DNA of 64,000 bases from an uncultured cyanobacterium (GTDB taxonomy: Bacteria; Cyanobacteriota; Cyanobacteriia; Phormidesmidales; Phormidesmidaceae), in the NCBI GenBank assembly GCA_963793265.1, contig CAWBZI010000006.1, forward strand, positions 96,001 to 160,000, in the 5' to 3' direction. A program made the translations under genes and the position numbers. The notes under the pieces are model-generated. The model saw only the letters and a program-made list of their open reading frames with translations. It ran no database searches and was not told the origin of the DNA. Positions 1-62,072 of this stretch are shown one piece after another (positions within the stretch are counted from its first letter, which is position 1; each line of letters begins with the position of its first letter).

Positions 1-728
1 CAAAAGTCCTTCATACGCAAAGGATTTGGAGCGGTACCGTTGTAAACACCCTGCATAGATGGATCAAGTAGCGCCTTCATGTAAAGGCTCACTAAATCAT
101 CAATGTGAATCCAGGAAAACCATTGACGACCGCTGCCGATAGGGCCACCTGCGTAGAGTTTGAACGGGGGCAGCATTTTAGCGATCGCCCCTCCATTTCC
201 CAACACAATCCCCGTCCGAATAATCACCACCCGCACCCCAAAATCCTTCGCCTTCCTAGCCGCAGCCTCCCACCCCTGACACACCTTTGAGAGAAAATCA
301 TTCTCCGCCGGTTCACTCGTCTCAAAAAACTCCGCCGTCTCACTCGTGCCATAAAATCCAATTGCTGAGCTACTCACCAGCACCGAAGGCTTCTGCTCCG
401 CATTCTTAATCGCCTCCACCAGCTTTTGCGTTCCGACCTGACGGCTATCAATAATCCGCCGTTTTCGCTCCGCCGACCATCGCTCAGAAATTGGCTCACC
501 CGCTAGGTTAGCCACACCATCACAGCCCGATATCTCATCTTGCCAATCGCCCGATTCTGTCGGCTTATACGCCACATACTCAAGCGACTTAAACTTAGGT
601 GCCGCAAAAACCTTCCGTGCCTTCTCCACGCTGCGCGTTAGCACTTTCACTTCATGGCTTTCGTCTATTAACCGAGCCACCAATTTAGACCCGACAAATC
701 CTGTTGCACCCGTAACGGCAATTTTCAT
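1..728 (-). CDS. TIGR01777-family NAD-dependent epimerase/oxidoreductase, truncated at window edge
   Basis: Not in the ORF track. Manual translation from ATG at 728 gives MKIAVTGATGFVGSKLV (Rossmann motif), NLAGEPI, SSSAIGFYG, GSGRQWFSWIHIDDLV, GVYNGTAPNP; frame stays open to position 1. Confidence 0.9.
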   Translation of the reverse strand, partial: MKIAVTGATGFVGSKLVARLIDESHEVKVLTRSVEKARKVFAAPKFKSLEYVAYKPTESGDWQDEISGCDGVANLAGEPISERWSAERKRRIIDSRQVGTQKLVEAIKNAEQKPSVLVSSSAIGFYGTSETAEFFETSEPAENDFLSKVCQGWEAAARKAKDFGVRVVIIRTGIVLGNGGAIAKMLPPFKLYAGGPIGSGRQWFSWIHIDDLVSLYMKALLDPSMQGVYNGTAPNPLRMKDF

Positions 729-840
729 AGCTGGGCAATATTCCTGTTTTATCAACTGCCTTTAATAGTAGCGAGCTGAGGAACGGCAGGGTACAGAACA
801 TAAGATAGAGTTGATAAACTAATAGCTAAGCGACTTGGAG

Positions 841-1134
841 ATGGCAGTTATGGACGGAGTAAAAACTTCTGTAGAGCAAAAGCGTAAACAGCTCATAGAA
901 GACATCCAGACATTACCAGTTGACCGTTTGCAAGAAGCAGCCGACATCATCTCTCAGTTACAGAAAGAAGTAGTAGCAGAAATTGAGCAACCTCCAGTTC
1001 AGCCTTCGTTGTCTCCCTACGAAGCGTTTAAAAAATCTGGGTTCATCGGTTGTGGCGAGGGGCCATCTGACCTTGCGGCTAATCATAAACAGTACTTAGA
1101 AGAGGGCTGGAAAGATAAGTATGGTTATCGCTGA
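841..1134 (+). CDS. Putative antitoxin (DUF2281-like) of VapBC-type pair
   Basis: Small ORF overlapping the PIN gene; C-terminal GFIGCGEGPSDLAANHKQYL resembles cyanobacterial PIN-associated antitoxins. Start could be 835, 841 or 850. Confidence 0.65.
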   Translation: MAVMDGVKTSVEQKRKQLIEDIQTLPVDRLQEAADIISQLQKEVVAEIEQPPVQPSLSPYEAFKKSGFIGCGEGPSDLAANHKQYLEEGWKDKYGYR

Positions 1135-1540
1135 TACAGGCTTTTGGGTTGCAATTGCAAATCCGAGTGACGATGATCATGATGCAGCCGTTCAGGCTAT
1201 GAAAAAGCTGACAGAGCCTCTAATCACGACTTGGCCAGTGATTACGGAAACGTGCTACTTACTCCTAACTAAGATAGGTAACCATGCGCAGGTTGGATTT
1301 ATCGATAGATTGGTAGCAAAAGACTTTCAGACGTTCAAAATTAGAGTAGAACACGCGCCACGAATCTCTGAGCTGATGAAAAAGTATGCTGACTTGCCGA
1401 TGGATCTAGCGGATGCGTCACTGATTGTATTAGCTGAGCACTTGGGTGATGGTCGAATCCTATCGGTTGACCGACGTGATTTTAATACCTATCGCTGGAA
1501 AAATCGCGAACCCTTTGAAAATTTGATGTTTCCTGAGTGA
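1121..1540 (+). CDS. vapC: PIN-domain VapC-family toxin
   Basis: IADTGFWVA, TTWPVITET, MDLADASL, ILSVDRRDF carry the PIN acidic residues; 139 aa. Confidence 0.88.
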   Translation: MVIADTGFWVAIANPSDDDHDAAVQAMKKLTEPLITTWPVITETCYLLLTKIGNHAQVGFIDRLVAKDFQTFKIRVEHAPRISELMKKYADLPMDLADASLIVLAEHLGDGRILSVDRRDFNTYRWKNREPFENLMFPE

Positions 1541-1586
1541 GGCTGGATACTATCGTCTTTCGTTAAAGGTAATAGCAATGCGCTTT

Positions 1587-5347: not shown

Positions 5348-6175
5348 TTAACCTTTCACACCACTACCCGTTTCTGAAGGCACGATGTAGCGCTGAGCCA
5401 GTACGAAAAACAGAATTACCGGCACAATCGAAATTACCGAACCTGCGGCAATCAATCGCCAGTCGAGAGAGAAGCTACCGGCTAGTTTGGCGACGCCTAG
5501 AGGCAAAGTGTAGTATTCAGGTCGATCCAGAATTAGTAGAGGCCATAGGAAGTCGCTCCATGAGCCTATGAAGACAAAGATGGCAAGGGTGACTAAGGCT
5601 GGGCGTACGGATGGAATCATGATGTGCCACCAGATGCCTAGCTCGGTGCAACCATCGATGCGGGCGGCTTCTTCAAGTTCTTTGGGGACTGATTGGAAGG
5701 CTTGGCGCATGAGGAAAATGCCAAAGGCTGAGGCCACTGCTGGGAAGATTGCGCCGATGTATGAGTTGGTGAGGCCGAGCTGCACGGTGAGGATGTACAG
5801 CGGAATCATCACGATTTGGAAGGGGATGAGGATGGTGGAGACAATAAGGGAGAAGAGGAGTTCTCGGCCTTTAAAGTTGAGGCGAGCTAGGGGATAGGCG
5901 GCTAAAGAGCAGAGGGTTAGGTTGAGGATGACGGTGACAACAGCGATTAGGGTGCTGTTGAAGAAGTAGCGGCCAAAGGGGTTGGACTGCCATACCTTGA
6001 GGAAGTTGCCGAAGGTTGGGGCTTGGGGTAGAAACTGCGGTGGGAATTGGAAGAGATTTTCGGCAGAGCCTTTGAAGGCGGTGCTGATAAGCCAGAGCAA
6101 AGGGAGGAGCATGACCAGAGCGATCGCACCCAGCACCCCATACATCAAAATTGTCCGCCCCCATCCCCGCTTCAT
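5348..6175 (-). CDS. Carbohydrate ABC transporter permease (LacG/MalG-like)
   Basis: Several TM segments, EAA loop ELEEAARIDG, WSDFLWPL. Confidence 0.93.
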   Translation of the reverse strand: MKRGWGRTILMYGVLGAIALVMLLPLLWLISTAFKGSAENLFQFPPQFLPQAPTFGNFLKVWQSNPFGRYFFNSTLIAVVTVILNLTLCSLAAYPLARLNFKGRELLFSLIVSTILIPFQIVMIPLYILTVQLGLTNSYIGAIFPAVASAFGIFLMRQAFQSVPKELEEAARIDGCTELGIWWHIMIPSVRPALVTLAIFVFIGSWSDFLWPLLILDRPEYYTLPLGVAKLAGSFSLDWRLIAAGSVISIVPVILFFVLAQRYIVPSETGSGVKG

Positions 6176-8239: not shown

Positions 8240-9223
8240 GTGGTTCAATTCCATATCCAAACCGACAGCGAAATACCGGCATCCACGCAGCTTTACGACC
8301 AAATTTGGTTTGCGATCGCCTCTCGCCAATATCCACCCGGATACCGTCTGCCCAGTACCCGCCAGCTTGCCATGCAAACCGGGCTACACCGCAACACTAT
8401 CAGCAAGGTATACCGCCAGCTAGAAGATGCGGGCGTAGTCGAGGCCATGCCAGGCTCGGGCATTTACGTACGCGCAGAGGGCACCACAGATATTGTGAAA
8501 CCGGGCTCGCCGCTGCTGGATAAGTTTCCGAAGGCCCAAGAGCTAGTAGAGAATAGCTTAGACGAACTGCTCAGGCAGGGATGTTCGCTGCATCAGGCCC
8601 GTGAACTGTTTATGACTGAAGTTGACTGGCGGCTGCGCTGTAGCGCTCGGGTGCTAGTGACGATTCAGCGCGAAGATGGGGCGGGCGAGCTGATGGTGCG
8701 TGAGCTAGAGCAGGCGCTGAAGATTCCGGTGCAGCTTGTGCCTTTAGAAGAATTAGATCAGGTGTTGGCGCAAACCCGGTCGGGTACGGTGGTGACGAGT
8801 CGGTATTACGTGAATGAGGCAGAGGCGATCGCGGCTCCAAAATCCGTCCGCGTCATCCCTATCGACATCTACGACTACGCCAAAGAGCGCGAGCTGCTTA
8901 AGAACCTTCCTAAAGACACCTGCCTTGGTCTAGTCAGCCTCAGCAGCGGTATCATCCGCATTGCCGAGGTTCTTTCCTACAGCCTACGCGGCGATGACAT
9001 CTTAGTGATGACTGCTCAGACTGAGGATTCACAAAAGCTATCAGCCGTTGTCCGTAGCGCTCAAACGATTGTGGCGCTAGATACAGCAAGCTATCCAGCA
9101 ATCAAAGAAGCTTTACTTGCCGCCCGCAATGACATCATTCGGCCACCCGAAATCATTCGCTGCGAAAACTACATTGGTGAGAAGTCAATTGGTAGGCTCA
9201 AGCGAGAGTTAGGACTAGATTAA
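8240..9223 (+). CDS. plmA: GntR-family transcriptional regulator, cyanobacterial PlmA type
   Basis: RLPSTRQLAMQTGLHRNTISKVYRQLE HTH, DWRLRCSARVLV, C-terminal LKRELGL. Confidence 0.85.
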   Translation: MVQFHIQTDSEIPASTQLYDQIWFAIASRQYPPGYRLPSTRQLAMQTGLHRNTISKVYRQLEDAGVVEAMPGSGIYVRAEGTTDIVKPGSPLLDKFPKAQELVENSLDELLRQGCSLHQARELFMTEVDWRLRCSARVLVTIQREDGAGELMVRELEQALKIPVQLVPLEELDQVLAQTRSGTVVTSRYYVNEAEAIAAPKSVRVIPIDIYDYAKERELLKNLPKDTCLGLVSLSSGIIRIAEVLSYSLRGDDILVMTAQTEDSQKLSAVVRSAQTIVALDTASYPAIKEALLAARNDIIRPPEIIRCENYIGEKSIGRLKRELGLD

Positions 9224-10354: not shown

Positions 10355-11254
10355 TCAAGCCTCAGCGCTAACTAGCTGCTCAGCATTTTCTACATCAGCG
10401 CCTTTCAAGAAGGCATTTGTAATTTCCAGGTACCGCTCAGCGTCTTCCATCATGGGAAAGTGAGCGGTATTTGGCATGAGTACATACTGCATTTGCTCGC
10501 TGATGTCGGCGGCCTGTTTGCCTAGTTTGGCGGGCGTAATTTGGTCGTATTCACCGGACACCATCAGCGTAGGCACCTTTAAGTTTTTGAAGGCGATTGG
10601 CATGACTTCGGTGGCGTGTTTGCTCACCGCCGCTTTTAGCGTCCCCATCGATGTGGGGCCATCGGCCATTAGGAAGTCGTTGAGGAAGGCTTTTTTCTCG
10701 GATAGAGGAATGGAGCCTTTGAGGAAGCGCTGCATGAATAGTTGCGGCGCGAAGGGGATTTGGCCAAGCCATTTGGGGCGAAAGGCGACGACGCCACCGC
10801 CGAAGAAGTAGAACAGCTCGAAGGCTATTTTTTGGTAGGGGAAGCTGCCGTTGCAGGTGAGGATTGCTCGCTTTACGCGCTCGGGGTAGCGGTCTAAAAA
10901 GTACAGCCCTGCGGTGCCGCCGAGTGAGTGGGCGTTCATGTATACAGGCTGATTGAGGTTCAGGGTGTCTAGAAGTACGGCAAGATCTTCGGCAAAGCTT
11001 TCTAGTGAGCTGAGGGAAGGGTCTGCGGCCATGGCTTCTGGGGGAGCGGGGTGCGATCGCCCAAATCCCCTCATGTCATAAAGCAAGCAATCATACTCAT
11101 CTTTAATCGCCTCAGCCGTCGATTCCCAATACCGAGCAGATCCGGCCCAACCATGCAAAAAGACCATCACTGGCTTGGAGTAGTCGCCAGGATGGTCTTG
11201 CGTAGAAATCCATTCGTAGTAGTGATCAACCCCGTTTACGCTGACGTAAGGCAT
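10355..11254 (-). CDS. Alpha/beta-fold hydrolase
   Basis: FLHGW, YDMRGFGRS, nucleophile AHSLG, HFPMME. Confidence 0.9.
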   Translation of the reverse strand: MPYVSVNGVDHYYEWISTQDHPGDYSKPVMVFLHGWAGSARYWESTAEAIKDEYDCLLYDMRGFGRSHPAPPEAMAADPSLSSLESFAEDLAVLLDTLNLNQPVYMNAHSLGGTAGLYFLDRYPERVKRAILTCNGSFPYQKIAFELFYFFGGGVVAFRPKWLGQIPFAPQLFMQRFLKGSIPLSEKKAFLNDFLMADGPTSMGTLKAAVSKHATEVMPIAFKNLKVPTLMVSGEYDQITPAKLGKQAADISEQMQYVLMPNTAHFPMMEDAERYLEITNAFLKGADVENAEQLVSAEA

Positions 11255-16250: not shown

Positions 16251-17168
16251 ATGACTAGCGCTGACAGCTCGAATGCTGCGCCCAGGTTTGGCCGAGTGCT
16301 CACCGCAATGGCAACGCCGTTTTTGCCTTCTGGGGAGGTTAACTATCCCATAGCCGAAAAGCTGGCAAGCCACCTGGCAGACCATGGCACAGATACCGTT
16401 GTGGTGTGTGGCACAACAGGCGAGTCGCCGTCTCTGACTTGGGATGAAGAATATGCTCTGTTTAAGGCTGTAAAGCAGGCGGTGGGCGGTAGAGCGCAGA
16501 TATTGGCGGGTACGGGTTCTAATAGCACCACTGAAGCGATTGAGGCGACTCGGAAGGCTGAGAAGCTTGGGCTAGAGGGATCTTTGCAGGTAGTGCCTTA
16601 CTACAATAAGCCACCTCAAGCGGGGTTAGTGGGTCACTTTGAGGCGATCGCACAGTCCGTCCCCGACTTACCGATCATGCTCTACAATGTTCCTGGGCGC
16701 ACTAGCTGCAACCTTCTTCCTGAAACAGTTGCCAAATTATCAAGTATTCCTAATATCGTTGCCATCAAAGAAGCAAGTGGGAATCTTGATCAGGTCAGCG
16801 CGATCAGCAGATTATGTCCATCTGAGTTTGAGATTTACTCAGGAGACGACTCTTTAACGCTGCCCATGCTCTCCGTAGGCGCAGTGGGCGTTGTTAGCGT
16901 CAGCAGTCATTTAGTCGGTGATAAGCTTCAAAAAATGGTTCGTGCTTTTGAAGCAGGCCAGGTCAAAGAAGCCAGAGATTTGCATCTTCAGCTATTGCCT
17001 TTGTTTAAAGTTTTGTTCTCGTTTACGAGCCCGATTCCTCTAAAAATGGCGTTAGAGCTTCAGGGTTGGGCAGTTGGCAAATGCCGCCTACCGCTCTGTA
17101 AAGGGTCAAATGAACTTAGGCAAGTGCTTAAAACCACACTCTTAGAACTGGATCTACCAGTGGCATAG
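16251..17168 (+). CDS. dapA: 4-hydroxy-tetrahydrodipicolinate synthase
   Basis: GTTGES, YNVPGRT, AIKEASG, YSGDD. Confidence 0.97.
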
Positions 17169-17816: not shown

Positions 17817-19814
17817 ATGAGTAGACTCACAGATAGCAGCTCAAAAGAAAGTGCTCAAGACGTACAGAGCGCGCCAAAGCCTAGCCCTAAGACCAGCAAA
17901 AGAACTGGCCCGACTAGAACCAGAACCACCGCCCGCAGCAGTGCTGCTAAAACCAGCTCAAACAACGGCAACGGCGCTAGCCCAAAGAGTAGCCCAAGCA
18001 GCAAAAACGGTCGATCTAGCAACGAAAAAGTGCTCAAGATCATTCCGTTAGGTGGCCTGCATGAAATTGGTAAGAACACCTGCGTCTTTGAATATGATGA
18101 TGAAATTGTCTTATTAGATGCTGGCCTGTCTTTCCCGACTGAAGGAATGCACGGCGTTAATATCGTGCTGCCTGATATTACCTATCTCAAAGAGAATCAG
18201 CACAAGATTAAAGGCATGATCGTCACCCATGGTCATGAAGACCATATTGGCGGTATTGCTTTTCACCTGAAGCAGTTTGATATTCCTGTCATTCACGGCC
18301 CGCGTTTGGCGATGGCGCTGCTGCAAGGCAAGTTAGAAGAAGCTGGAGTGAGCGATCGCACCAAACTCCACACCGTTGGCCCTCGTGACATCGTTCAGTT
18401 CGGCAAGCACTTCAAAGCGCAATACATCCGCAACACGCACTCCATGGCCGACAGCTTCACCATGGCGATAGAAACGCCCGTGGGCACCATCATCCACAGC
18501 GGTGACTTCAAAGTTGACCACACTCCGGTAGACGGCGAATTCTTCGACTTTCAAAAAATTGCAGAGTACGGCGAAAAAGGCGTTCTGTGCCTGATCAGCG
18601 ACTCTACCAACGCAGAGATTCCAGGAAACACACCTTCTGAACGCGCCGTATTCCCCAACCTAGACAGAGAATTTAACGACGCCAAAGGTCGCCTGTTCGT
18701 CACGACATTTGCCTCCTCGGTTCACCGGGTCAGCATGTTGCTAGAGCTAGCCCAAAAGCACAAGCGCGACGTATTCGTCGTAGGCCGTTCAATGCTGAAC
18801 GTTATCTCTCACGCGCGAAACCTGGGCTACATCAACGCGCCCGACAGCCTGTTTAAGCCACTCAACATGCTTAAGCAGTGCCCCGATGAAAAAGCGATGA
18901 TCCTGACGACTGGCTCACAGGGCGAGCCAATGGCAGCGCTCACCCGCATCGCCAACCGATCCCACCGCCAGATTAGAATCCAAAAAGGCGATACGGTTAT
19001 CTTTTCGTCTAACCCAATTCCCGGCAACACCATTGGCGTCGTCAATACCATTGACAAGCTGATGATCCAGGGCGCTCGCGTTATCTATGGCAAGGGCAAA
19101 GGGCTACACGTTTCCGGTCACGGCTACCAGGAAGATCACAAGCTGATGTTGGCGCTTACTCGGCCTAAGTTCTTCATTCCTGTACACGGCGAGCATAGAA
19201 TGCTGGTCAAGCACGCTGAAATGGCGCAGCAGCTTGGCGTAGAAGCAGACAATATTGCCATTGTGAACAACGGTGATGTAATTAAGATTGCGCCTGACAG
19301 CATGGAAGTAGACGGTCAGGTAACCGCAGGTATTGAGCTTGTAGATGCTTCACGCACAGGTATTGTCGAGCGGGCGGTGCTCAAAGAGCGTCAGCAGTTA
19401 GCTGAAGATGGCATCATCACTGTCTCAGCGACCGTTGACAGCAAAGGTCATTTGCTAGGCGATCCCTCTATTAACTTGCGCGGTGTTGTGACTGTCAAAA
19501 CGCAGGAGCAGTGGGAGCGTAGCGCTGTTGCTACGGTGAAAAAGTCGCTGCGTGAGCGGTGGAAAGAAGTGGTTGAGAATGCAGATAGCGATCGCCCCAC
19601 CATTAAATGGGATGGCTTGCAGTCTCGGCTTGAAGAAGACGTGCGTCGATTTGTGCGTCGCGAGCTGCCAAAGCAGTATCCGGTCGCCGTTTTGCTGCTT
19701 CAGCATGTCGATGGTGCGGTAGCTGCTGGCGATGATGGCCAGAATGGAGCGGCGGTTGGAGAGCCTAAGCGTAGCCCCGGTAGACGTAAGCGATCGCTCG
19801 CCTCCGCCTCCTAA
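17817..19814 (+). CDS. rnj: Ribonuclease J
   Basis: PLGGLHEIGKN, THGHEDHIG, HSGDFK, HVSGH, PVHGEHR; low-complexity N- and C-terminal extensions. Confidence 0.96.
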   Translation: MSRLTDSSSKESAQDVQSAPKPSPKTSKRTGPTRTRTTARSSAAKTSSNNGNGASPKSSPSSKNGRSSNEKVLKIIPLGGLHEIGKNTCVFEYDDEIVLLDAGLSFPTEGMHGVNIVLPDITYLKENQHKIKGMIVTHGHEDHIGGIAFHLKQFDIPVIHGPRLAMALLQGKLEEAGVSDRTKLHTVGPRDIVQFGKHFKAQYIRNTHSMADSFTMAIETPVGTIIHSGDFKVDHTPVDGEFFDFQKIAEYGEKGVLCLISDSTNAEIPGNTPSERAVFPNLDREFNDAKGRLFVTTFASSVHRVSMLLELAQKHKRDVFVVGRSMLNVISHARNLGYINAPDSLFKPLNMLKQCPDEKAMILTTGSQGEPMAALTRIANRSHRQIRIQKGDTVIFSSNPIPGNTIGVVNTIDKLMIQGARVIYGKGKGLHVSGHGYQEDHKLMLALTRPKFFIPVHGEHRMLVKHAEMAQQLGVEADNIAIVNNGDVIKIAPDSMEVDGQVTAGIELVDASRTGIVERAVLKERQQLAEDGIITVSATVDSKGHLLGDPSINLRGVVTVKTQEQWERSAVATVKKSLRERWKEVVENADSDRPTIKWDGLQSRLEEDVRRFVRRELPKQYPVAVLLLQHVDGAVAAGDDGQNGAAVGEPKRSPGRRKRSLASAS

Positions 19815-22903: not shown

Positions 22904-23483
22904 TTACCAGACACTACTGACTGAAGAGATTGCGGGTGTTGATGAGGTAGGGCGAGGAGCGTTTTTTGGGCCGGTCGTGGCAGCGGCGGTCGTTTTGCCA
23001 GAGGGGGCGATCGCACCCCTCACCGAAGCAGGCGTCACTGACAGCAAAAAACTATCGCCCGCCAAAAGACAAAAACTCGCGCTGCAAATTAGAGAAATAG
23101 CCCAGTGCAAAATAGGCATGGCCTCTGCCTATGAGATTGACAGGGTTAATATTTTGCAGGCGTCTTTGCTGGCAATGTATCGCGCGATCGCTCAGCTATC
23201 GCCACCGCCTAAGCTGTGTTTGATAGATGGCAATCAGCGAGTACCGCAGTTAGAGATACCGCAGCGGACGATTGTGAAAGGCGACCAGCATGAGCTAGCG
23301 ATCGCCGCTGCTAGCATCGTCGCAAAAGTGTGGCGAGATGACCTTATCACCCGGCTAGATCGCCGTTATCCTGGCTATGATCTAGCCTCTAATAAGGGCT
23401 ACGGAAGCGCAAAGCACAGAGCGGGCATCGCCAATCTAGGCGTTTGTCGGCAGCATCGAAAATCGTTCAAAAGCTGCCAGTAG
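22896..23483 (+). CDS. rnhB: Ribonuclease HII
   Basis: AGVDEVGRG, DSKKL, LIDGN, AAASIVAKVWRD, NKGYG; likely GTG start at 22896 overlapping the end of rne. Confidence 0.95.
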   Translation: MSSYQTLLTEEIAGVDEVGRGAFFGPVVAAAVVLPEGAIAPLTEAGVTDSKKLSPAKRQKLALQIREIAQCKIGMASAYEIDRVNILQASLLAMYRAIAQLSPPPKLCLIDGNQRVPQLEIPQRTIVKGDQHELAIAAASIVAKVWRDDLITRLDRRYPGYDLASNKGYGSAKHRAGIANLGVCRQHRKSFKSCQ

Positions 23484-41057: not shown

Positions 41058-44000
41058 CTAGGCGACTAGGCTAACGACGGTGGCGATGAGTTCGTCTATG
41101 CTGGTGGGTTTGACGAGGTGGTATTGAAAACCGGCGAGGAGGAGGTTTTCGGTGTCGCTGACGGCGGCGTAGCCAGTGAGGGCGATCGCAGGCACCTGTC
41201 CACCGGCTTCTTCAGGGCGCGATCGCACCCACTCAATCAAAGTCAAACCCGTCCTGGCCTGGCAAACTAATGTCGCTGATAATCAAATCAGGCATTCCTT
41301 GTTCGGTGATGTGTGCGATCGCCCCACCCACCGAAGTCGCTGTTATCACCGTAGCCTGCTGCGCCTCTAGCGTGACCGTCAAAATATCTAAGTTGTCAGG
41401 GTCATCTTCAACCACCAGTATTTGCAAATCGCCCAGCAAATTTTCACCGACAAACGGCGGTGTCGTCGTCGCAATGGGTCGTACAGCGACCGTCAACGGC
41501 AGCAAAATGGTCAGCGTTGCACCAGCGCCTAGTCCAGAAGAGTCCATTGTCACCGAGCCTTCATGAGCTTCTACAAACACTTTAATAATCGCTAGCCCTA
41601 AACCCAGGCCCGAGTACTGCCGCGTATTAGAGCTATCGGCCTGACGAAACCTGTCGAACACATAGGGAAGAAACTCAAGATCAATACCTTTACCCGTATC
41701 GCGCACCTGAATTTGGGCCTGCTGTTCGGTATAGCTGAGTGAGATTTCGACTTCGCCACCCTCCGGCGTGAACTTAATCGAGTTAGAGAGCGCGTTGTTG
41801 AATACCTGCTGCAATCGCTCAGGATCAAAATAGTAGTAGTCAGGCGCTTCGGCTAAGTTAGCCACCAGCCGAATACCGACACTCTCTGCAACCGGCAAAA
41901 TACCTTCCACCACATCAGCAACTAGCTCAGTGAGATCTACCGCCCGGCGCTGTAGCGATAGCTGCCCCTGAATAATGCGAGAGACTTGGAGCAAATCTTC
42001 AATAATGCGCGTTTGCGTTTGGGCGCTACGCTCAATACTGGTCAGCGCTCGCTGTTGCAAAACAGGATCGGCACTAGATTGATTTAAAAGAATCTCTGTC
42101 CAGCCCAAAATGGCGTTGAGCGGCGTGCGCAGTTCGTGAGAGAGCACTGACAAAAACTCGTCTTTACTAGCGTTGGCCGACTCGGCTTCTACTCTAGCGG
42201 CTCTCTCTTGCACAAGCTGCAACCGCTCCTGCTCGGCCCTCTTGCGCTTGGTAATATCTTCAATCGCCAGCAAAATCATAGAAGAATCATCTTGTTCGGC
42301 TAGCTGTGAGTGCTGCTGTGTCCCCTGTTCGATATAGCGCGCGTTGAGCAGCAGCGTTTTACGGCCACCCTGTTCAAAGTTGTGCTCCACCTCAATATCT
42401 TGAAGCGGGAAACCCTCGGCTAGCAAATTTTCTAAAGCCGCCCGCAGCACTGGAATGTTCCACTGACCACCGCCGACATCCAGCAGCCGCTGGCCTTCGG
42501 TTTCAGCAGCAGAGCCTTGTGTAAACTCGTAAAAAGCACGGTTAGCCGTTTTTATTTGGAGCTGAGCGTTGAGCACAATTAGCGGCTCTCGCACCGTTTC
42601 AACAATACTCTCTGCATAGAATCGAGATGCCTCAAGCTGCTGCAACGTCCGCTTAATATCGTCAATATCTACCAGCGCCATCACCGCGCCATCAATTTGA
42701 TTATCGGCGGTGCGGTAGGGCCGAATGCGCAGCCGGTACCAGTGCCCTTCACTATCTTGCACTTCACGCTGCTGGGCATCGAGCGTGTTGATCACACCCG
42801 AGATAAGGGTTTCAAGGTCGGGAATATCCAGATCAAAGCGAATGTTGCTGATTGGCCTACCTACGTCTGTGGGAATAAAGTTGAACAGACGCTGTGCGGT
42901 CGGGGTGAAGCGGCGAATGCACAGGTCGCTTGAGAGCATGACCACTGGAATGCTGACGTTGTTGAGCAGGTTGATTAGGTCGTCGTTAATAGAGCGGGTG
43001 TCGAGGTTGCGGCTCTGTAGCTCTTCGTTGGTGGTTTTTAGCTCTTCGTTGGCCGCCTGAATCTCTTCTTTGGCGGTTTGTAGCTCTTCGTTGGTGCTTT
43101 GTAGCTCCTCGTTACTCGATAAAATCTCTTCGTTGGCGGTCGTCAGGCGCTGGTTGGCCGCATTGTGTTCTTCTATGGTGGCCTGCAAGTAGGTTTGAGT
43201 ATCGAGCAGCTCTTGGCGAACCCCGGCAAGCTCTCTTTCGAGCCGGGTAATGTCAGGGCGGCTAGTAGGCGTGCTTTCTGCTTGGGGGCGATCGCTCACC
43301 GAATCGGCCAGCACCAAATCCCCTTCTTCAAACAGCACAATGTAGCAGCGCTCTTGCGACAGCGGATTTTTAATCGGTGTGACTTCTATATGAACGTAGC
43401 GCGCCGACCCTTCTATCAGCAGATTTTCTTCTCTGATTGTCGTCACCTGCTGTTTGGCCCGCTCAACTGCCGAACGAACTTCGATCAGCAGGCTAGGCCG
43501 CAGCATTTTGAGAAAATTAAAGCTAGGCTCGCCGGGCGCAGGTCTGAGATAGGGGCTCGTATCGCCGCGGAAGTGTAAGATATCGAGCTGATTGTTAATC
43601 ACTACACCCGACGGAGCATAGCGGTTGAGCATCACTTGATCGGCCTGACGCTGCACGTTTGAGTAACCGGTGAGCTGAGCAGGAACGCCCTCGGCTATCG
43701 ACGTGGGATGGAGAGCGGCGCTGTCGCTGGTGATAAAGTCAAAGCTAAGCCGGTTAGCGACCGAAGCGCGGGTGTAAGCTTTATGCTTTTTATCGACCAC
43801 TTCAAACATATCGGAGGTTTCACCAATGCTCTCGGAGCTGCCGAGCCAGAGAAAGCCGGTAGCGTTAAGGCTATAGTGAAAAATCGCTAGCACTCTTTTT
43901 TGCAGCGCGGACGTGAAGTAAATCAGCACGTTGCGGCAGCTAATAAAGTCGATATTAGAAAAAGGCGCGTCGCTGCTGAGATTTTGGCGTGCAAAAACGC

Positions 44001-48221: not shown

Positions 48222-48353
48222 GTTTTTTACAAAAATAATGTAGTGCGTACCTAAAATCTGACTGTTTATCTGCTCGCTGTATTTGCTGACTATAATTGTC
48301 TGTCAGCAGTCCGCCTGGTTGTCACAAAACTTGCTGGTTACAAAACTTGTTGG

Positions 48354-51372: not shown

Positions 51373-51395
51373 AGAAATTCCATCCTCACAGATTC

Positions 51396-52817: not shown

Positions 52818-54051
52818 AGGGTTTGGATGTGAAAGGGGATAAGGTCTTCAAAACCCACTCATATTCGCGCTGAATAGAATTCTGTACGGTCATTTGCAAA
52901 TGGCTCGGCAGCACGTCCCAGGTGTAGGTTTCAATTTCGAGATGACGGCACTTAAGCGTCGGCAGTCGGTTCAAAATTGCTTCGAGATGAGCGCGCGTCG
53001 ATTGAACAGACTGATAGTCGTCTAAGAAGATAGGCACGTGGAAGTGCGTACGCCACTCTTCGGCCTGAGTGCTGTCGAGGTCTACGAGGGCTTCTTTTAA
53101 ATCGCGATATTGCTGGCGCTTACCGTTGGCGTGGCGCGCAACAACCTGATGCAGGTAGGTGGATTCAACAAAAGGAGAGAGGCGATCGCCCACAGCCCGT
53201 CGCCCAGCCGCATCAGCCGGGATAGCCACCTTTAGCGCCGAGCTAAGCTGAAGCTTGCCGATTTGAATTCCTGAAAACAAAAAGCGGTCAATCGCCTCAT
53301 TCGGATCTTCATAGGCCACCGCAAAATGACAGGTGTCATAGCAAACCTGCACGTGTGTTCTCAGCCAGTCCTCTGCTACGGCCTTAGATAAACCGCGCTC
53401 TGAGCTGAGCTGAGCGATCCCAACCGGCAGCAGCCACTGCTCAAAGAAATTAATCAGCTCCGTCGTATTCTCAATCAAACCATCCGGCTCAGGCTCAATA
53501 TCTAAATGCAGCACCTTACCCGTTTGTAGGGCAACATCCGCCATCGCCGCCACCACCTGAACAATCTGACGAGTGCTTTGTTCAAACACACTATCAAATG
53601 TATTTTGAGTACCCCCCTGCCACCACGGTTTATAAGACAGCGGCAGGGTAGAGATACCACCGTCCATATCAGGCGGTAGAAGTGCCGCTAAAATCTCCAC
53701 CAGCCGCAGGGTGTAATGCAGCCGCTTTGGTTGAGTCCAGTCAGGCGCATACACTTTATCTTTTACAACCTGATTGTGGAAGCCGCCGTAAGGGAAGCCA
53801 TTCAGCGTAAAAACATAGAGGTCTTGTGCTTGTAGCCAGCGCTGAAAAGATAACAGCGCATCGCCTTGCAACAGTTCGCGGCTCGCGGCATCTGATAGGC
53901 GTAGGCCAATACCAAATGCTTGATTGGGAAAGAGATTATGCTTAAGCGCGGTGACGTGAGTGGCTAGATTGTCAAATACGGCTGGCCAGCTTTCGCCAGG
54001 GTGGATGTTGGTGCAGTAGGTGAGATGGGTTGGGGATGAGGAGAGTTTCAT
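52795..54051 (-). CDS. eboE: EboE, TIM-barrel protein
   Basis: LTYCTNIHPGESW, TLNGFPYGGFH, EPEPDG, YDTCHFAV, WRTHFHVP, LEIETYTW. Confidence 0.92.
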   Translation of the reverse strand: MKLSSSPTHLTYCTNIHPGESWPAVFDNLATHVTALKHNLFPNQAFGIGLRLSDAASRELLQGDALLSFQRWLQAQDLYVFTLNGFPYGGFHNQVVKDKVYAPDWTQPKRLHYTLRLVEILAALLPPDMDGGISTLPLSYKPWWQGGTQNTFDSVFEQSTRQIVQVVAAMADVALQTGKVLHLDIEPEPDGLIENTTELINFFEQWLLPVGIAQLSSERGLSKAVAEDWLRTHVQVCYDTCHFAVAYEDPNEAIDRFLFSGIQIGKLQLSSALKVAIPADAAGRRAVGDRLSPFVESTYLHQVVARHANGKRQQYRDLKEALVDLDSTQAEEWRTHFHVPIFLDDYQSVQSTRAHLEAILNRLPTLKCRHLEIETYTWDVLPSHLQMTVQNSIQREYEWVLKTLSPFTSKPYAKNSCH

Positions 54052-55673
54052 GCAACAGAACGCACCGATGCGCCAACAGACGAGCCAACAGCGGCTACTT
54101 CTAAGAGCGAAACTTCTAAAACCGCAGGCATAATGTCCTCACTTTCAAGCTCGTTCAAAGGCGCTTTCACAGGCTTGTTGTTCAATTCCTCAGACGGCGC
54201 ATTGACGACATCATCAGATGGTTCACTTGCTAACGCTACAGACAGCTCATCAGGCGATTGGTTCGTCAGCTCATTAGATGGCAGGTTAGGCTGAGCCGCT
54301 ATCTGATTTTGAGGCTGGCCTTGCGCTTGCTGCGCTTGTTGCTGCGCCTGAACCTGCTTCTGAGCTTGTGCCTGAGCCCGCAGCTTGGCCTGTTCCTGAG
54401 CCTTCAGTTGAACCTGCTTTTTTAGATGCTCTCTAACAACGCTTTGAGCCTTTTTCTTAGCAGTCGCGGTGCGGTGGGCTCGGGCGGTTAATAGCGCGAT
54501 CGCCTCTCGATACCGGCCAAATTCAACCTCATGCACCTCTACCCCCTGACCAATTGCCCACAGCAGCGTAATCGTCAGCTCACCCCCCAAATGCTGTTGA
54601 AACTCAGTGAGTCCTTTAAACAGTGAATCGGGGTGCTCAGGCTGATCGAGATGTCGAAACAGCTCTGCAACAGATAGGGTAAAGCCCAGCATTTCTAGCG
54701 TATCTAGCACGCGCTTGCACTCAGCAGCACTAATTAGGCCCGAGAGCTGAGAGTAAATGGTGTCTAAAGCAATACCGATGGCGACCGCCTCACCATGACG
54801 CAGCTTGTAGTCTGTCAAATACTCCAGCCGATGCGCCGACCAGTGACCAAAGTCGAGCGGACGAGACGATCCTTTTTCAAACGGATCGCCATAGCCACCG
54901 ATGTGTTCTACATGAATTTTGGCGCAGCGATAGACCAGTCTTCGCATAGCGTCCATATCACGGCGGGCGAGGGCTTTGGCATCTTTTTCTATTTGATTAA
55001 AAAAGTCGGCGTCTTTGATTAGCGCGACTTTTACCGCTTCGGCAATGCCTGCTCGCCAGTCGCGATCGCCCAGTGACTTCAAGAACGAAAAGTCATTAAG
55101 CACTGCGTACGGCGGTGCGAATGTGCCAATAAAGTTCTTTTTCTCAAAGGCGTTAATGCCATTTTTTACGCCCACACCTGAGTCGTTTTGGGCCAATACA
55201 GTCGTCGGGACTCTGATCAGACGGATGCCACGGTGAGCGATCGCAGCCGCATAGCCCACCATATCCAAAACCGCCCCACCCCCAATCGCCATCACATACG
55301 AGTGACGACAAATATTGTGCTGATTCATCACCCAGCAAAGCTGCTCAACTAGGGCATGGTCGTTTTTAGACTGTTCACCACCCGGCACCGACAGCGGCGC
55401 AGTCACCAGCTTTACCTGATCAGAATATTGCTGCGCGTAGGTCATCACCATGCCGAGCAGTTGGCTGTGTGCCATTAGGCCATCATCAGCAACCACGAGC
55501 ACCCGGCCCGGCTTGCCATCGGCGCTCAAAACGTTGGCAAGTAGAGGGTTATCGGGCCGAAACAGGCCGTCAGTGAAGTGGACGCTGTATTCAAAAGGAA
55601 CAGAAAATTGCTGCTGAATGGGCTTGAGTTCTGAGGCAGCGGTCGAAGGGGAGGCGGGGGCGATTGCAGTCAT
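54048..55673 (-). CDS. eboD: EboD, 3-dehydroquinate-synthase-like sugar phosphate cyclase with C-terminal extension
   Basis: GGGAVLD, PTTVLAQNDSGVGVKN, AEAVKVALIKD, RPLDFGHWSAH, HGEAVAIG. Confidence 0.88.
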   Translation of the reverse strand: MTAIAPASPSTAASELKPIQQQFSVPFEYSVHFTDGLFRPDNPLLANVLSADGKPGRVLVVADDGLMAHSQLLGMVMTYAQQYSDQVKLVTAPLSVPGGEQSKNDHALVEQLCWVMNQHNICRHSYVMAIGGGAVLDMVGYAAAIAHRGIRLIRVPTTVLAQNDSGVGVKNGINAFEKKNFIGTFAPPYAVLNDFSFLKSLGDRDWRAGIAEAVKVALIKDADFFNQIEKDAKALARRDMDAMRRLVYRCAKIHVEHIGGYGDPFEKGSSRPLDFGHWSAHRLEYLTDYKLRHGEAVAIGIALDTIYSQLSGLISAAECKRVLDTLEMLGFTLSVAELFRHLDQPEHPDSLFKGLTEFQQHLGGELTITLLWAIGQGVEVHEVEFGRYREAIALLTARAHRTATAKKKAQSVVREHLKKQVQLKAQEQAKLRAQAQAQKQVQAQQQAQQAQGQPQNQIAAQPNLPSNELTNQSPDELSVALASEPSDDVVNAPSEELNNKPVKAPLNELESEDIMPAVLEVSLLEVAAVGSSVGASVRSVA

Positions 55674-55740
55674 GAGAGGTTTGGGGCTTTGGGGGGATTA
55701 GGGAATCGGAAGACTTGTAAAGGGTCGAAGGAAAGAGAAC

Positions 55741-57782: not shown

Positions 57783-57890
57783 TTGTCGCTTATTTTGGTC
57801 TTTCTTGACTTTCTTTTAGGTGTTTTGGGGCTTGTATGCGTTTGAGGTTGTTGGTTGGTGGGGTGGGTTTCCGATGTATACGCTAAACAG

Positions 57891-58796
57891 TTACTTCTCA
57901 AAAGGAGAAGGTAGCCCTCTAAAATTCTCCCAAGTAAGCTCCCCCGAACAAATGCGCGCCTGCAAATCGGGATAGCCACTCAACAAGGCCCGAGCAATCG
58001 AAGACTTCGAGCAAGCCAGTGCCGCTGCCGCTTGCTCCGCCGCATCCGCACTTACCAGCACGCGCACCAAGTCACCAACAACCTGCGCATCAGCATGAGA
58101 GCCTACCGCTCGCCACAGCTCAGGATCAACTTTGCGGCCAGCGGCCCAGCGCTCATGGGCATAGTCGGAGAGCATTCTTGCCAGCCGGGGATTTGCTCGC
58201 TCGTCTAGTCCATGAATTAGCGAAAGCGAGCTGTCTTCAAAGAGTGCCTTGAGTACCATTTGGTTCCAGGCAGGCTCGTCAAAGTATTGGGCGGGGTAGG
58301 GATTGCGCAGGGCGATCGCTTCAAACACAATCGTCATAGAACTGCGCAGACCATCAATCGCCTGAGCACAAAAGCTTTCGGGTTCGGGAAACAGCGGAAG
58401 GCTTTGATAGAGCGCAACCGTTTCGCTGACATCGGCGCTGTCAAACAGGTTTTGAACAAGCTGCCGAAAGGGAACGTTCTCGTGTTCTAAGCACGCCAGT
58501 AGCAGCATGGTTCGAGCCGCCTGATCGGTGCTCCAATGATCTATTTGCCAGCCGGGACAAATGGACGGTAGCTGCGATTCATCTAGCTCGCTCACTTGCA
58601 GATCGTCTTTACCCACGCGCCTTGCTGCCGCGCTAAAAACAGGAAATACGTTGCGCTCATTTTTCCAGACCTTAGCCATGGCGTTTTCGAGCCATTCAGC
58701 GGCAGGTTCGGCAAGCTGTCGGGTGAGCTTTCTATAGAGAAAATAGGTGGCAGCAGCGGCCTTTGACTGATTGGGAGGAATATCTAGAGCGTACAT
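57891..58796 (-). CDS. eboA: EboA domain protein
   Basis: WSTDQAAR, ALRNPYPAQYFDEPAWNQMVLKALF, DYAHERWAAGR; the ATG at 58796 avoids overlap with trpD. Confidence 0.9.
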   Translation of the reverse strand: MYALDIPPNQSKAAAATYFLYRKLTRQLAEPAAEWLENAMAKVWKNERNVFPVFSAAARRVGKDDLQVSELDESQLPSICPGWQIDHWSTDQAARTMLLLACLEHENVPFRQLVQNLFDSADVSETVALYQSLPLFPEPESFCAQAIDGLRSSMTIVFEAIALRNPYPAQYFDEPAWNQMVLKALFEDSSLSLIHGLDERANPRLARMLSDYAHERWAAGRKVDPELWRAVGSHADAQVVGDLVRVLVSADAAEQAAAALACSKSSIARALLSGYPDLQARICSGELTWENFRGLPSPFEK

Positions 58797-58815
58797 TTTA
58801 GAGATGCTTTTATAA

Positions 58816-59919
58816 TTACTGTAAAAATCTTGAAAGTTGCTCAAACTTTGTCCAGGCCGCACCGCTAGAGAGGACGTTTTGGGCGATCGCAACCCCTTCC
58901 TTTAACGCTTCCGTATCGCTCAGATTCTCTGATAACGCCTCGCCAACCTGAAGCGTTAGCGCAGTATTGATTGATACGATATCTCTTTGAGCCTGCGTAC
59001 CTTTACCCTGCAATACGGACTTAAGAATCTCAGCATTCACCTGAACATCGCCGCCCCTAATAGCTTCAGTGGGAGCCTTTTGCAGTCCTAGCATCTGCGG
59101 GCTCACCGCCTCAATATTAATTTGAGTGCCTTTTACCACAGCAATATCACTAAAGTCAGCCAGCCCGGCCTCGTCCAAATTTTCGCGGGCATGAACCACA
59201 ACGGCCCGGCGCGTACCCAAGCGGCTGAGCGCCACTGCAATCGTTTCAATCAGCGTAGGATCGTACACGCCGATTACCTGGCCTGTCGGCTGCATGGGGT
59301 TGAGTAGGGGGCCAAGCAGATTGAAGATCGTGCGGATCTTGAGGGTTTTGCGGAGGGGAGAAATCGCCTTAAAAGCAGGATGCCAGCCCGGCGCATACAA
59401 AAAGGTAATACCTACCTCATCTAACGCCGCACTCACCTTATTAGCAGGCGCACTCAAATTTAGACCTAACGCCTCCAACACATCCGCCGAGCCCGCCTTA
59501 CTAGAGGCCGATCGGTTACCGTGCTTAGCCACTTGCAGCCCGGCTGCTGCCGCAACAAAGGCCACCGCCGTTGAGATGTTGAACGTAGAGGCACCGTCGC
59601 CGCCCGTCCCACAGGTATCGACTAAAGGCAGCGAATTTTCAGGGCGCGGCGGGCTTGTAATCGCCCGCGCCCTGAGCACACGTACCATACCTACTAGCTC
59701 GCTTGCCGAAACGCCTTTTGCCTGCAACGCGGTTAAGATTGCGCCCGACATTACCGGCTCAACGGCTTCATCGAGCCACGCTTGCATCAGAGATTCTGAC
59801 TGTTCAGCCGTGAGCGACTGTCTGTCGAGTAGCTGCTTTAGCAGAGAAGAATAGTCTTGCTCGGCTGTTGTTTCAGCAGGGCGAGTTCGTTGAAAAATAG
59901 CTGTCATAGGAGATACCAA
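58816..59919 (-). CDS. trpD: Anthranilate phosphoribosyltransferase
   Basis: [33 protein letters not shown]; start may be the ATG at 59907. Confidence 0.96.
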
Positions 59920-59940
59920 GTAGGAAAGATCAAAGAAGAC

Positions 59941-61188
59941 TTAGCCTTCCAAATTCAGCGCTTTTGCTGCGGTTTGCACGTCTTTATCACCGCGCCCGGA
60001 GCAGTTGATCACGATGCGAGGACTGCCTTCTAGCTGAGGGCAAAGGGTTTCGAGATAGGCGATCGCATGAGCCGTTTCCAGTGCAGGAATAATCCCCTCT
60101 AGCTCCGAGAGCAAACAAAAGCCGTCCAAAGCCTGCTGATCGGTCACGCTGTAATACTCAGCTCTATTAGTGTCTTTTAGGTAGCTGTGCTCAGGGCCAA
60201 CGCCAGGATAGTCAAGCCCCGCGCTAATCGAATGCGCCTCAATAATCTGCCCGTCCGAATCTTGCAACAAATAGCTCATCGCCCCGTGCAGTACGCCCAC
60301 TCGCCCTTTGGTCAACGTCGCCGCGTGCTTATCGGTATCTACGCCTTCACCCGCAGCTTCGACTCCAATCATCCGCACCGAAGAATCTTTGACAAAATCA
60401 TAGAAAAGTCCCATTGCGTTAGAGCCGCCGCCAATACAGGCCAGCAAAATATCAGGCAAGCCGCCCCATTTCTCTTCACACTGCGCCCGCGTTTCTTGCC
60501 CAATCACCGCATGAAAATCTCGAACAATCATCGGGTAAGGATGTGGCCCGGCGACAGAACCTAGAATGTAATGTGTGGTTTCGACATTCGTTACCCAGTC
60601 ACGAATTGCCTCAGAGGTTGCGTCTTTGAGCGTACCTGTGCCCGCTTCTACCGGGCGGACTTCAGCGCCAAGCAGCCGCATCCGAAATACGTTGAGCGAC
60701 TGTCGGGCCATGTCGTGAACGCCCATGTATATGATGCACTCTAGCCCGAAGCGAGCGCAGGCGGTAGCAGTGGCAACGCCGTGTTGACCGGCCCCTGTTT
60801 CTGCGATGATTCTCTTTTTGCCCATGCGCTTAGCAAGTAGGGCCTGAGCGATCGCATTGTTAATTTTGTGAGCACCCGTATGGTTCAAATCTTCTCTTTT
60901 GAGATAGATTTGAGGGCCAGAGCCATCGGGTTTAGCGTAGTGAGCCGTGAGGCGTTCGGCTAAATAAAGTGGATTCGCACGGCCTACATAGTCTTTGAGT
61001 AGGTGCTGTAGCTCTTTGTCGAACTCTAGGTCGTAGCGGTAGTGGTTATAGGCACGCTCTAGCTCAGCTAAGGCAGGCATGAGGGTTTCAGGCACGTATT
61101 TGCCGCCGAACTGGCCGAAGCGCCCGAGGGCGTCAGGCATTTGTTCTTTTTGCGGGGCGGACTTGGAAGGGTTGAATGTCGTGACCAT
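59941..61188 (-). CDS. trpB: Tryptophan synthase beta chain
   Basis: [42 protein letters not shown]. Confidence 0.98.
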
Positions 61189-61259
61189 TTGGATCTCCTG
61201 TTGTTTTGTTTTTCTATCTAGTTCAGCCGTCGATATCAGTCGATACCAACAGATATCAG

Positions 61260-62072
61260 CTAAACGGCTACTGCCTCTTTTTTCTCAATAGCTCCTTTCA
61301 GCCCTCGACAAAAGTCTTCAACAGACTTGAGCCGCTCGCTCGGATCTTCCGTCAGCCGCTTTACAAACGCACTGCCCACAATCACCGCATCCGCGCCGCT
61401 CTCCTGCATCTGCCGGGCCTGCTCAGTGCTAGAAATACCAAAGCCAACGCCAATCGGCTTATCGGTGTGCGATCGCAATTCCTTCAGCAGCGGGCCCACA
61501 TTTGCTCCCGTCTGCTGCCGCATTCCAGTCACCCCGGTCACGCTCACCAGATACACAAAGCCTTGGGAGGCACGGGCGATCGCCTGCATCCTCTCTTCCG
61601 AACTCGTCGGAGCCACCAGCAAAATCACCTCAACGCCGCACTTACCCGACAGCGACAGCAGCGCATCCGACTCTTCTAAAGGCAAATCAGGAATCACCAG
61701 ACCTTGCACGCCAGCCGCCTTAATCCGCTTCAAAAACAGCTCAATCCCATGGTTCAAAATTGGATTGTAGTAAGTGAACAATATCAGCGGCGTTTGCAGC
61801 TTAGGTGCAACCGTTTGCACCATCTCTAGCACCGCGTCTAGCTGTATGCCCTTTGCCAAAGCCCGCGTAGCGGCTGCCTGAATGACGGGGCCATCGGCTA
61901 GCGGGTCGGAATAAGGGACGCCCAGCTCAATCAAATCAGCGCCGCTTTTATCAAGTACCTGTAGCGCCGAGGCCGTTGTTTCAAGGTCGGGATCGCCCGC
62001 CATGATGAACGGCACTAGGGCGCATTGTTTTTGCGATCGCAAACTTTCAAACCGTTCAGAAACAGTCACCAT
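61260..62072 (-). CDS. trpA: Tryptophan synthase alpha chain
   Basis: [38 protein letters not shown]. Confidence 0.97.

Follow-up and report, generated by a model that had tools for sequence, protein, structure and literature searches.

The palindromic octamer HIP1, GCGATCGC, is flanked by DNA whose composition flips at the octamer itself: the plus strand is G-rich 5' of GCGATCGC and C-rich 3' of it. This holds in the window, i.e., the whole stretch of 64,000 nucleotides (nt) analysed here (positions 96,001 to 160,000 of contig CAWBZI010000006.1, the contig C6 of an uncultured cyanobacterium of the Phormidesmidaceae, assembly GCA_963793265.1), as well as in stacks over the source genome, G000 (5.68 Mb on 7 contigs), where 6,878 of the 6,888 HIP1 copies were stacked. 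The window holds 61 copies, from position 181 to position 63976, against 1.94 expected from dinucleotide shuffles. No consensus on what HIP1 does has emerged in the three decades since it was recognised, and a polar footprint of kilobase range implies that something directional starts there on each strand. We put at roughly 0.45 the probability that HIP1 is the fixed start of a strand-polar process of excision, resynthesis or recombination; the footprint supplies such a process with a sign, a length scale and a lineage distribution.

In the window stack (60 scorable copies), GC skew, written in pairs of the form +/- as the value 5' of HIP1 followed by the value 3' of it, is +0.50/-0.46 at 1-5 nt, +0.26/-0.23 at 11-20 nt and +0.06/-0.12 at 51-100 nt. 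Genome-wide, it amounts to +0.285/-0.289 at 6-10 nt, +0.18/-0.19 at 11-20 nt, +0.161/-0.179 at 21-30 nt and +0.086/-0.099 at 51-75 nt, and is back to baseline near 300 nt from the octamer. A per-site score S, i.e., (G-C) upstream minus (G-C) downstream over 40 nt on each side, is positive at 56 of the 60 scorable window sites and at 83% of sites in the genome (mean 9.4, standard deviation 9.2). At random genome positions its mean is -0.03 (standard deviation 8.0; 46% positive), and at 5,000 random positions of the window -0.02 (46% positive). Because the whole per-site distribution of S is shifted, the flip is a property of HIP1 sites in general and not of a subset of them.

A preliminary description of the window had reported this flip at 16 octamers picked by eye, with the caution that such a choice may be biased. 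All 16 coordinates are indeed HIP1 and the stacks show the flip; the hand counts given for two of them are exact (11 G and 4 C in 151-180 versus 2 G and 16 C in 189-220 around the first site, and 16 G and 7 C in 11021-11052 versus 3 G and 10 C in 11061-11090 around the fourth). The sites lie at 181..188 (S = +23), 6120..6127 (+25; inside a minus-strand open reading frame (ORF) of our own gene calls, 5348-6175), 8825..8832 (+21), 11053..11060 (+24), 16644..16651 (+11), 18352..18359 (+17; inside the plus-strand ORF 17817-19814, which the description called rnj), 23007..23014 (+18), 24617..24624 (+14), 31208..31215 (+18), 35546..35553 (+13), 41182..41189 (+15), 43288..43295 (+20), 53182..53189 (+16), 58312..58319 (+19), 58883..58890 (+13) and 61576..61583 (+9). 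The eye had picked the strongest sites (mean S 17.2 versus 9.0 for the other 44 scorable ones), but this is not the source of the effect, as 91% of the other 44 are positive as well. The four window copies without the flip are found at 24859..24866 (S = -3), 25525..25532 (-2), 55062..55069 (-4) and 60848..60855 (0). The flip had been worded as one from G/T-rich to C/A-rich DNA, of which the G versus C part stands, whereas the T versus A part is weak overall (the antisymmetric TA skew at HIP1 is only about 0.03-0.07), T strongly replacing C where C/T alone is silent.

Averaged over HIP1 copies by signed distance across the genome, a check that had been suggested along with the description, the antisymmetric skew is seen at degenerate sites. 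Our gene calls comprise 4,690 ORFs and span 86% of the genome. At their fourfold-degenerate sites 11-30 nt from HIP1, genes on the plus strand show a GC skew of +0.418/-0.448 and those on the minus strand one of +0.426/-0.451, near-equal values that agree with a flip at third codon positions regardless of gene direction. In sense orientation, genes on either strand are G-rich at third positions before HIP1 and C-rich after it, and since the skew changes sign at HIP1 in this orientation, it is not transcription-coupled. The claim that it is not replication skew either holds for large-scale skew: when sites are split by local 100-kb skew, the amplitude of the flip stays the same and the baseline alone is shifted, which shows the flip to be independent of large-scale skew. 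The latter carries, in this genome, the same G/C-dominated signature as the HIP1 effect. It is patchy on contigs C1-C7, ranging from -0.10 to +0.10 per 100 kb at all sites and from -0.17 to +0.18 at fourfold sites, and none of the contigs is cleanly divided into two arms.

The ln odds ratio of G to C, 5' versus 3', lies between 1.49 and 2.05 across all 8 fourfold families and between 1.55 and 1.93 across all four following bases, a uniformity that rules out any tRNA-level or dinucleotide-specific cause, including CpG and TpC chemistry. The flip is thus shown to be a DNA-level effect, independent of codon family and dinucleotide context. At fourfold sites 11-30 nt away, G alone gains on the 5' side and the loss falls on C, A and T being nearly constant: the share of G is 0.422 on the 5' side, 0.276 at baseline and 0.168 on the 3' side, that of C 0.167, 0.287 and 0.430, that of A 0.170, 0.191 and 0.189, and that of T 0.241, 0.247 and 0.213, respectively. 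The 5' side can hence be described by one factor per base (G x1.53, C x0.58, A x0.89, T x0.98). Twofold sites shift as well, C/(C+T) being 0.325 5' of HIP1, 0.617 3' of it and 0.495 far away, and G/(G+A) 0.656, 0.400 and 0.513, respectively. By derived arithmetic, the fourfold factors predict twofold ln odds ratios of -1.08 (C/T) and +1.03 (G/A), and the observed values are -1.21 and +1.05; a single parameter, G favoured and C disfavoured 5' of HIP1 with A and T neutral, describes all silent classes. A pure exchange of G and C, as would follow from the escape of C.C mismatches after error-prone resynthesis, was rejected, as twofold C/T and A/G sites shift equally strongly.

When gaps between adjacent HIP1 copies are sorted into six length classes (150-300 nt to 2-4 kb), the fourfold skew describes a saw-tooth in every class, with its zero point halfway along the gap. 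In the 548 gaps of 2 kb or more, it is, negative side first, -0.53/+0.50 at 1-50 nt, -0.21/+0.125 at 301-500 nt and -0.10/+0.03 at 751-1000 nt; the decay in such wide gaps is roughly logarithmic, with a reach of about 1 kb. A single-exponential fit gives a length of 91 nt, which is an average over opposing neighbour sites. The median distance from one of the 6,888 switches to the next is 577 nt, and no more than 300 nt separate 53.5% of the genome from a HIP1.

The strength of the response depends on the kind of position. It is highest at third codon positions, followed by intergenic (about 29% of the fourfold response), first (19%) and second positions (13%), an order that, according to what Muto and Osawa reportedly found, is usual for directional mutation pressure. 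The response is almost complete at fourfold positions next to intergenic HIP1 (0.197 at 51-100 nt) and weak at intergenic positions next to genic HIP1 (0.053), so that the weak intergenic response belongs to the positions and not to the HIP1 sites. HIP1 also measurably shifts amino-acid usage: M, V, E and G are 16-31% more frequent on its 5' side, and T, N, H, I and P are 16-23% less frequent on the 5' than on the 3' side. At 11-50 nt, for instance, 5' and 3' shares are 8.0% versus 6.3% for Val, 6.7% versus 5.3% for Glu, 5.3% versus 6.9% for Thr, and 5.2% versus 6.2% for Ile.

The flip is specific to the full octamer. Among the 142 palindromic octamers with at least 30 copies in the genome, HIP1 is the sole outlier (0.154 versus a mean of -0.003, standard deviation 0.021), the second-ranked one, ATCGCGAT, being an overlap of tandem HIP1 copies. 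Genome-wide, no skew surrounds CGATCG that is not embedded in HIP1, GATC outside CGATCG, or GCGCGC, CGCGCG and further HIP1 look-alikes, and the seven-base half sites show at most one quarter of the HIP1 effect. The specificity for HIP1 that had been proposed is in line with these controls, none of which gives an equal signal. Twelve single-base variants, which by symmetry stand for all 24, were tested as well, and 11 of the 12 show no skew. The sole variant keeping the flip is GTGATCGC (the same as GCGATCAC), with +0.114/-0.114 for 432 copies more than 250 nt from any HIP1; it is the most abundant single-base variant, and corresponds to the C>T product at the cytosine that is methylated by the CGATCG enzyme according to PMC4390886. 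These copies are read as recently decayed HIP1 still bearing the footprint.

GTGATCGC/GCGATCAC is unusually common in this genome, with 766 copies or 11% of the HIP1 count, and the corresponding ratio is 0.6-5% in 20 other genomes of the same class. Such a high count fits frequent C>T decay at the methylated cytosine, no Vsr-type repair gene having been found in this genome. Two further candidate causes of the flip were discarded. Amino-acid or gene-position context, which had been named beforehand as a possible explanation, does not account for it: all fourfold families flip, control octamers and random positions are flat, and skew is nearly absent at orthologous positions without HIP1. A hairpin or extended palindrome is contradicted by the flanks, whose in-register complementarity at 11-20 nt is that of chance (0.257 versus 0.256 expected) and at the bases -1/+1 is below expectation (0.193 versus 0.267). 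Longer palindromes are in fact avoided at HIP1, with -1/+1 bases complementary at 19.3% of sites versus 26.7% expected from frequencies. Right next to the octamer, G is preferred at -1 to -3 and C at +1 to +3.

The anchoring on HIP1, another element of the preliminary description, is confirmed by orthologous positions, at which the skew follows the presence of the octamer. The comparison covers 281 gene pairs from 80-kb samples of five same-genus genomes, with a median amino-acid identity of 78%; as the five genomes are related, the pairs are not independent. In a conserved gene, identity to the nearest genomes available for comparison is no higher than about 80%, and little of the ancestral state is left at fourfold sites (excess identity to relatives 0.12-0.22). 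HIP1 is kept in 181 of 311 site-relative pairs. Where both genomes have HIP1 (181 pairs), S is 12.3 in the source genome and 8.4 in the relative. Where only the source genome has it (130 pairs), S is 9.6 there and 1.5+-0.65 in the relative; in the converse case, with HIP1 in the relative alone (160 pairs), S is 3.0+-0.63 in the source genome and 6.9 in the relative. The copies common to all aligned relatives are the strongest (S 13.9+-1.6, n = 29), those confined to the source genome reaching 10.1+-2.5 (n = 14). Because fourfold sites are largely randomised and the skew is nevertheless kept at shared sites, it can be said to track the octamer: it is regenerated or maintained where HIP1 is present and lost where it is absent.

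The strand-polar process that we favour would begin with a nick or break at the HIP1 palindrome. One strand would then be removed 5'-to-3' from HIP1, over tens to about 1,000 nt, and refilled and, HIP1 being a palindrome, a mirror-image process would take place on both strands. As a result, the two strands on each side would be under different damage and correction regimes. The strand ending 3' at HIP1 would behave as 'leading-type', gaining G and losing C over evolutionary time and, where a transition alone is silent, gaining T for C and G for A; neighbouring sites would oppose each other and thereby produce the saw-tooth. The G-enriched strand could be exposed in two ways, either left single-stranded by 5'-to-3' resection from a break at HIP1, or made the template for refilling by 5'-to-3' excision from a nick. 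The reach to about 1 kb and the crossing at the midpoint fit excision or resection tracts that compete between neighbours.

How such exposure would translate into composition may be envisioned in three ways. Damage to the exposed strand (a), as at human meiotic breaks (PMC7615360), would have the right sign, its weaknesses being the flat T and the lack of a rate rise. Mismatch repair that is one-directional and distance-dependent (b), along the lines of a model by Elhai (PMC4390886, section 3.4), would correct a strand's own replication errors with an efficiency that is highest immediately 3' of a HIP1 and lowest immediately 5' of the following one. Errors in nascent strands are generally held to consist for the most part of G.T mispairs (A>G, C>T) and 8-oxoG mispairs (T>G, C>A); left unrepaired in scenario (b), they would increase G and decrease C, with A and T cancelling, and under the same assumption on errors, error-prone refilling would yield the opposite sign. 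Biased heteroduplex correction in transformation or in recombination between chromosome copies (c), settings in which HIP1 is known to play a part (10.1101/2024.09.10.611283, PMC13756078), is the third possibility. More tentatively than for the general process, and at odds of about one in three, HIP1 may be the strand-entry signal of a MutH-less, one-directional excision system, acting in mismatch and/or recombinational repair, that the saw-tooth lineages use and others do not. If so, the saw-tooth would be an evolutionary read-out of 5'-to-3' polarity and of tract lengths from tens of nt to about 1 kb, and HIP1 would shape silent-site composition over more than half of the genome, plus protein composition.

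A number of observations weigh against this strand-polar process, the lineage distribution of the skew among them. In 38-100 kb samples of 22 other HIP1-bearing genomes, the antisymmetric skew at 6-60 nt (all positions) exceeds two standard errors in 15 and fails to do so in the remaining 7; none is negative by this measure. The 15 comprise five same-genus genomes (0.10-0.16), genomes G038 (0.149) and G020 (0.121), and eight others (0.045-0.07). Genome G053, with 281 HIP1 in 100 kb, has a skew of -0.006+-0.007, and because of this HIP1-dense genome without skew, HIP1 is necessary here but not sufficient, a lineage-specific factor being needed as well. The idea of a HIP1-anchored nick followed by 5'-to-3' excision, already put forward in the preliminary description, is supported by the geometry, but neither the MutH family (PF02976) nor the Vsr family (PF03852) was found in any of five cyanobacterial genomes including that studied here, the controls (E. 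coli for MutH) being positive. MutS (PF00488) and MutL (PF08676) are present in all five, both strong-skew and zero-skew, and thus do not explain the differences between lineages.

Other points on the same side come from the source genome itself. Fourfold excess identity to relatives is 0.22/0.16 at 1-30 nt from conserved HIP1 and likewise 0.22/0.16 beyond 400 nt; as neither fourfold divergence nor amino-acid identity changes with distance from conserved HIP1 in these ortholog alignments, it is unlikely that a strongly mutagenic process acts locally. Compared with 1,585 single sites, 125 close HIP1 pairs have outer flanks whose skew is 1.1-1.7 times as strong, a ratio expected neither from mere addition nor from control by the nearest site alone. 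The response of intergenic positions is about one third that of fourfold sites, beside genic and intergenic HIP1 alike, and synonymous first positions respond weakly (Leu C/T, ln odds ratio about -0.5) or not at all (Arg C/A), compared with -1.0 to -1.6 at third positions; the weak first-position response needs constraint as an explanation and, together with the intergenic deficit, counts against a purely neutral reading. Lastly, an equilibrium composition cannot separate mutation bias from fixation bias, and the nick or break at HIP1, the 5'-to-3' polarity, a methyl direction and the enzymes are inferences.

Fixation bias is at the heart of the main rival explanation, biased conversion, which we consider unlikely, if less so than the other rivals. 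HIP1 would be an uptake- or Chi-like entry point from which single strands form heteroduplex, and correction would accept C-bearing and reject G-bearing incoming alleles, or the converse on the other strand, which would leave G and C as the extremes and A and T neutral. C.C is generally regarded as the mismatch that MutS recognises worst. The single parameter that covers all silent classes, including the twofold ln odds ratios (predicted -1.08/+1.03, observed -1.21/+1.05), is what such a bias would give, and no rise in substitution rate is seen near HIP1. HIP1 was moreover found to boost transformation and integration (10.1101/2024.09.10.611283), and its abundance co-varies with competence genes (PMC13756078). 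However, the sign of the skew cannot be predicted from conversion unless the entering strand and the direction of correction are specified, and the zero-skew genome G053 has both MutS and MutL. Deamination as the sole cause, i.e., C>T and A>G changes in a single-stranded template 5' of HIP1 as first proposed, has the right geometry and an analogy in the resected strands at meiotic breaks (PMC7615360). It also agrees with the twofold sites, which move in the predicted direction by about a factor of 2 (C/(C+T) 0.325 versus 0.617, G/(G+A) 0.656 versus 0.400). Fourfold sites do not follow: deamination alone should raise T by as much as it lowers C, and lower A by as much as it raises G, but T does not rise (0.241 versus 0.247) and A only drops from 0.191 to 0.170. 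With T flat, deamination alone is insufficient, and the increase in purine share from 0.467 to 0.592 on the 5' side demands an equal pyrimidine-to-purine bias in addition, for which a single bias for G and against C accounts more simply. Together with the absence of CpG or TpC context dependence and of a rate increase near HIP1, this makes deamination on its own improbable, at about one chance in ten.

Selection on the flanks is given only marginally better odds. It supposes that HIP1 functions better, e.g., in strand-specific loading or recognition on single strands, with a G-rich 5' and a C-rich 3' flank, and it is in keeping with the conservation of HIP1 sites (181 of 311 site-relative pairs at 78% median amino-acid identity), with the selection on HIP1 argued for in PMC5861425, and with third positions responding more than intergenic DNA. 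On the other hand, silent sites out to about 1 kb would have to be tuned, in a genome of which 53.5% is within 300 nt of a HIP1; the flanks show no position-specific motif or pairing, the effect size is uniform across codon families and contexts, protein composition is dragged along, and HIP1-dense genomes manage without skew. Reverse causality, in which new HIP1 would arise preferentially at pre-existing switches from G-rich to C-rich DNA, is disfavoured and the least probable of all. The preference for G at -1 to -3 and C at +1 to +3, the extended HIP1 forms described in PMC4390886, and the small S of 1.5-3.0 kept at positions without HIP1 in one genome speak for it, but random positions have a mean S of 0 with a standard deviation of 8, versus a mean of 9.4 at HIP1 with 83% of 6.9 thousand sites positive. 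In addition, the oldest, i.e., shared, HIP1 are the strongest although fourfold sites are largely randomised, both genomes carry the skew independently at shared HIP1, and the saw-tooth scales with the distance to the next HIP1.

Among the known systems closest to the strand-polar process favoured here is a G-5mC-directed mismatch repair at HIP1 that Elhai proposed, on the model of Dam/MutH-directed repair in E. coli (PMC4390886, section 3.4), as the preliminary description had correctly stated of a methyl-directed repair role. Both would rely on a methylated short palindrome as strand signal or nick site, and they share a working range of about 1 kb, a HIP1 density of about one per kb, and the presence of MutS and MutL; the range of roughly 1 kb expected from a MutH-type signal is matched here by a skew still detectable at 751-1000 nt in gaps of at least 2 kb. 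In contrast, Elhai's model explains the origin of HIP1 copies and, in the section cited, is silent on flank composition; it deems seven-base half sites sufficient, whereas half sites have hardly any skew, if any, in this genome. The five genomes searched yielded no MutH-family nickase and, while repair in E. coli is bidirectional, the HIP1 footprint needs one direction. Human meiotic breaks show strand-asymmetric C>N and A>N changes on the resected strand on either side (PMC7615360). There, as at HIP1, the pattern is antisymmetric about a defined site, with C lost from the strand ending 3' at the break and a reach of about a kilobase, and it is attributed to 5'-to-3' resection (PMC7615360); the corresponding loss at HIP1 is that of fourfold C, 0.167 on the 5' side versus 0.430 on the 3' side. 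Unlike the HIP1 pattern, which is an equilibrium composition, meiotic hotspots are eukaryotic, driven by PRDM9/SPO11 and seen as de novo mutations, with A>N as prominent as C>N (PMC7615360), whereas A is nearly neutral at HIP1 and no raised local substitution rate is found there.

Replication GC skew is similar in opposing G to C with a small T versus A component of the same sign, as in the large-scale skew of this genome, and the change from G to C excess at HIP1 is the one seen at a terminus. The HIP1 pattern differs in having a period of about 0.8 kb, in being anchored on an 8-nt word, and in being superimposed on large-scale skew and independent of it; with 6,888 switches in the genome and an amplitude unchanged across the 100-kb skew splits, HIP1 sites do not behave as replication origins or termini. 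We know of no kilobase-scale compositional footprint around Chi or DNA uptake sequences. These are asymmetric words with an orientation bias, in contrast to HIP1, which is a perfect palindrome with a mirror-symmetric effect independent of large-scale skew. They have in common with it that they are over-represented, and HIP1 raises transformation and integration; this rise in transformation and recombination was described as methylation-dependent, in another species, and a Chi-like role was suggested (10.1101/2024.09.10.611283).

A compositional flip around HIP1 was not described in the literature searched, a full-text search with most subscription journals and supplements outside it, and term look-ups in PMC5861425, PMC4390886 and PMC13756078 revealed no mention of it either. 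The flank features reported in PMC4390886 are one- or two-base extensions such as GGCGATCGCC. The footprint makes HIP1 a large unrecognised determinant of codon choice, the odds of G to C at silent positions within 30 nt differing about 6.5-fold between its 5' and 3' sides. The existence of lineages with strong skew and of lineages with none also offers a comparative route to the enzymes.

With regard to candidate enzymes, about 7 C5-methyltransferase genes are present in the source genome, among which the CGATCG enzyme was not distinguished: NCBIfam places them in the generic dcm superfamily alone, and identities across genomes are 30-54%. In a comparison covering 15 of the 22 surveyed genomes, the three without a PF00145 gene have skew amplitudes of -0.006, -0.013 and +0.047, and the 12 with one have amplitudes of -0.011 to 0.149, two of them being without skew; the presence of PF00145 is thus only loosely associated with amplitude. 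A few HIP1-rich strains without a CGATCG methyltransferase are reported in PMC4390886. The ratio of GTGATCGC to HIP1, a proxy for the decay of 5mC, does not track skew amplitude in the surveyed genomes either. Scanning the neighbours of the methyltransferase genes of the source genome for a HIP1 nuclease revealed two arrangements, with nothing that links either the HNH or the SinI-type enzyme to HIP1. At C1:1596699-1598462, a C5-cytosine methyltransferase gene (336 aa) is convergent with, and slightly overlaps, the gene of a 257-aa HNH endonuclease; the two could be a restriction pair, or the endonuclease a nicking partner. At C4:92803-94930, a SinI-type restriction endonuclease gene adjoins a C5-methyltransferase gene split into two frames.

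Two minor observations concern other sequences. An 80-kb sample of another cyanobacterial genome (G075:C1:100001-180000) contains no HIP1 and instead has 146 copies of GGGATCCC (observed/expected 68), whose flanks in this sample are without skew (-0.020+-0.011). In addition, positions 41001-61000 of the window are found, whole or in part, as short, low-depth contigs in metagenome runs from three studies, at several levels of divergence; among the 40 differences listed, of about 490, most are transitions, and three DNA metagenome runs, but no RNA run among those listed, contain at least 0.77 of the sampled words.

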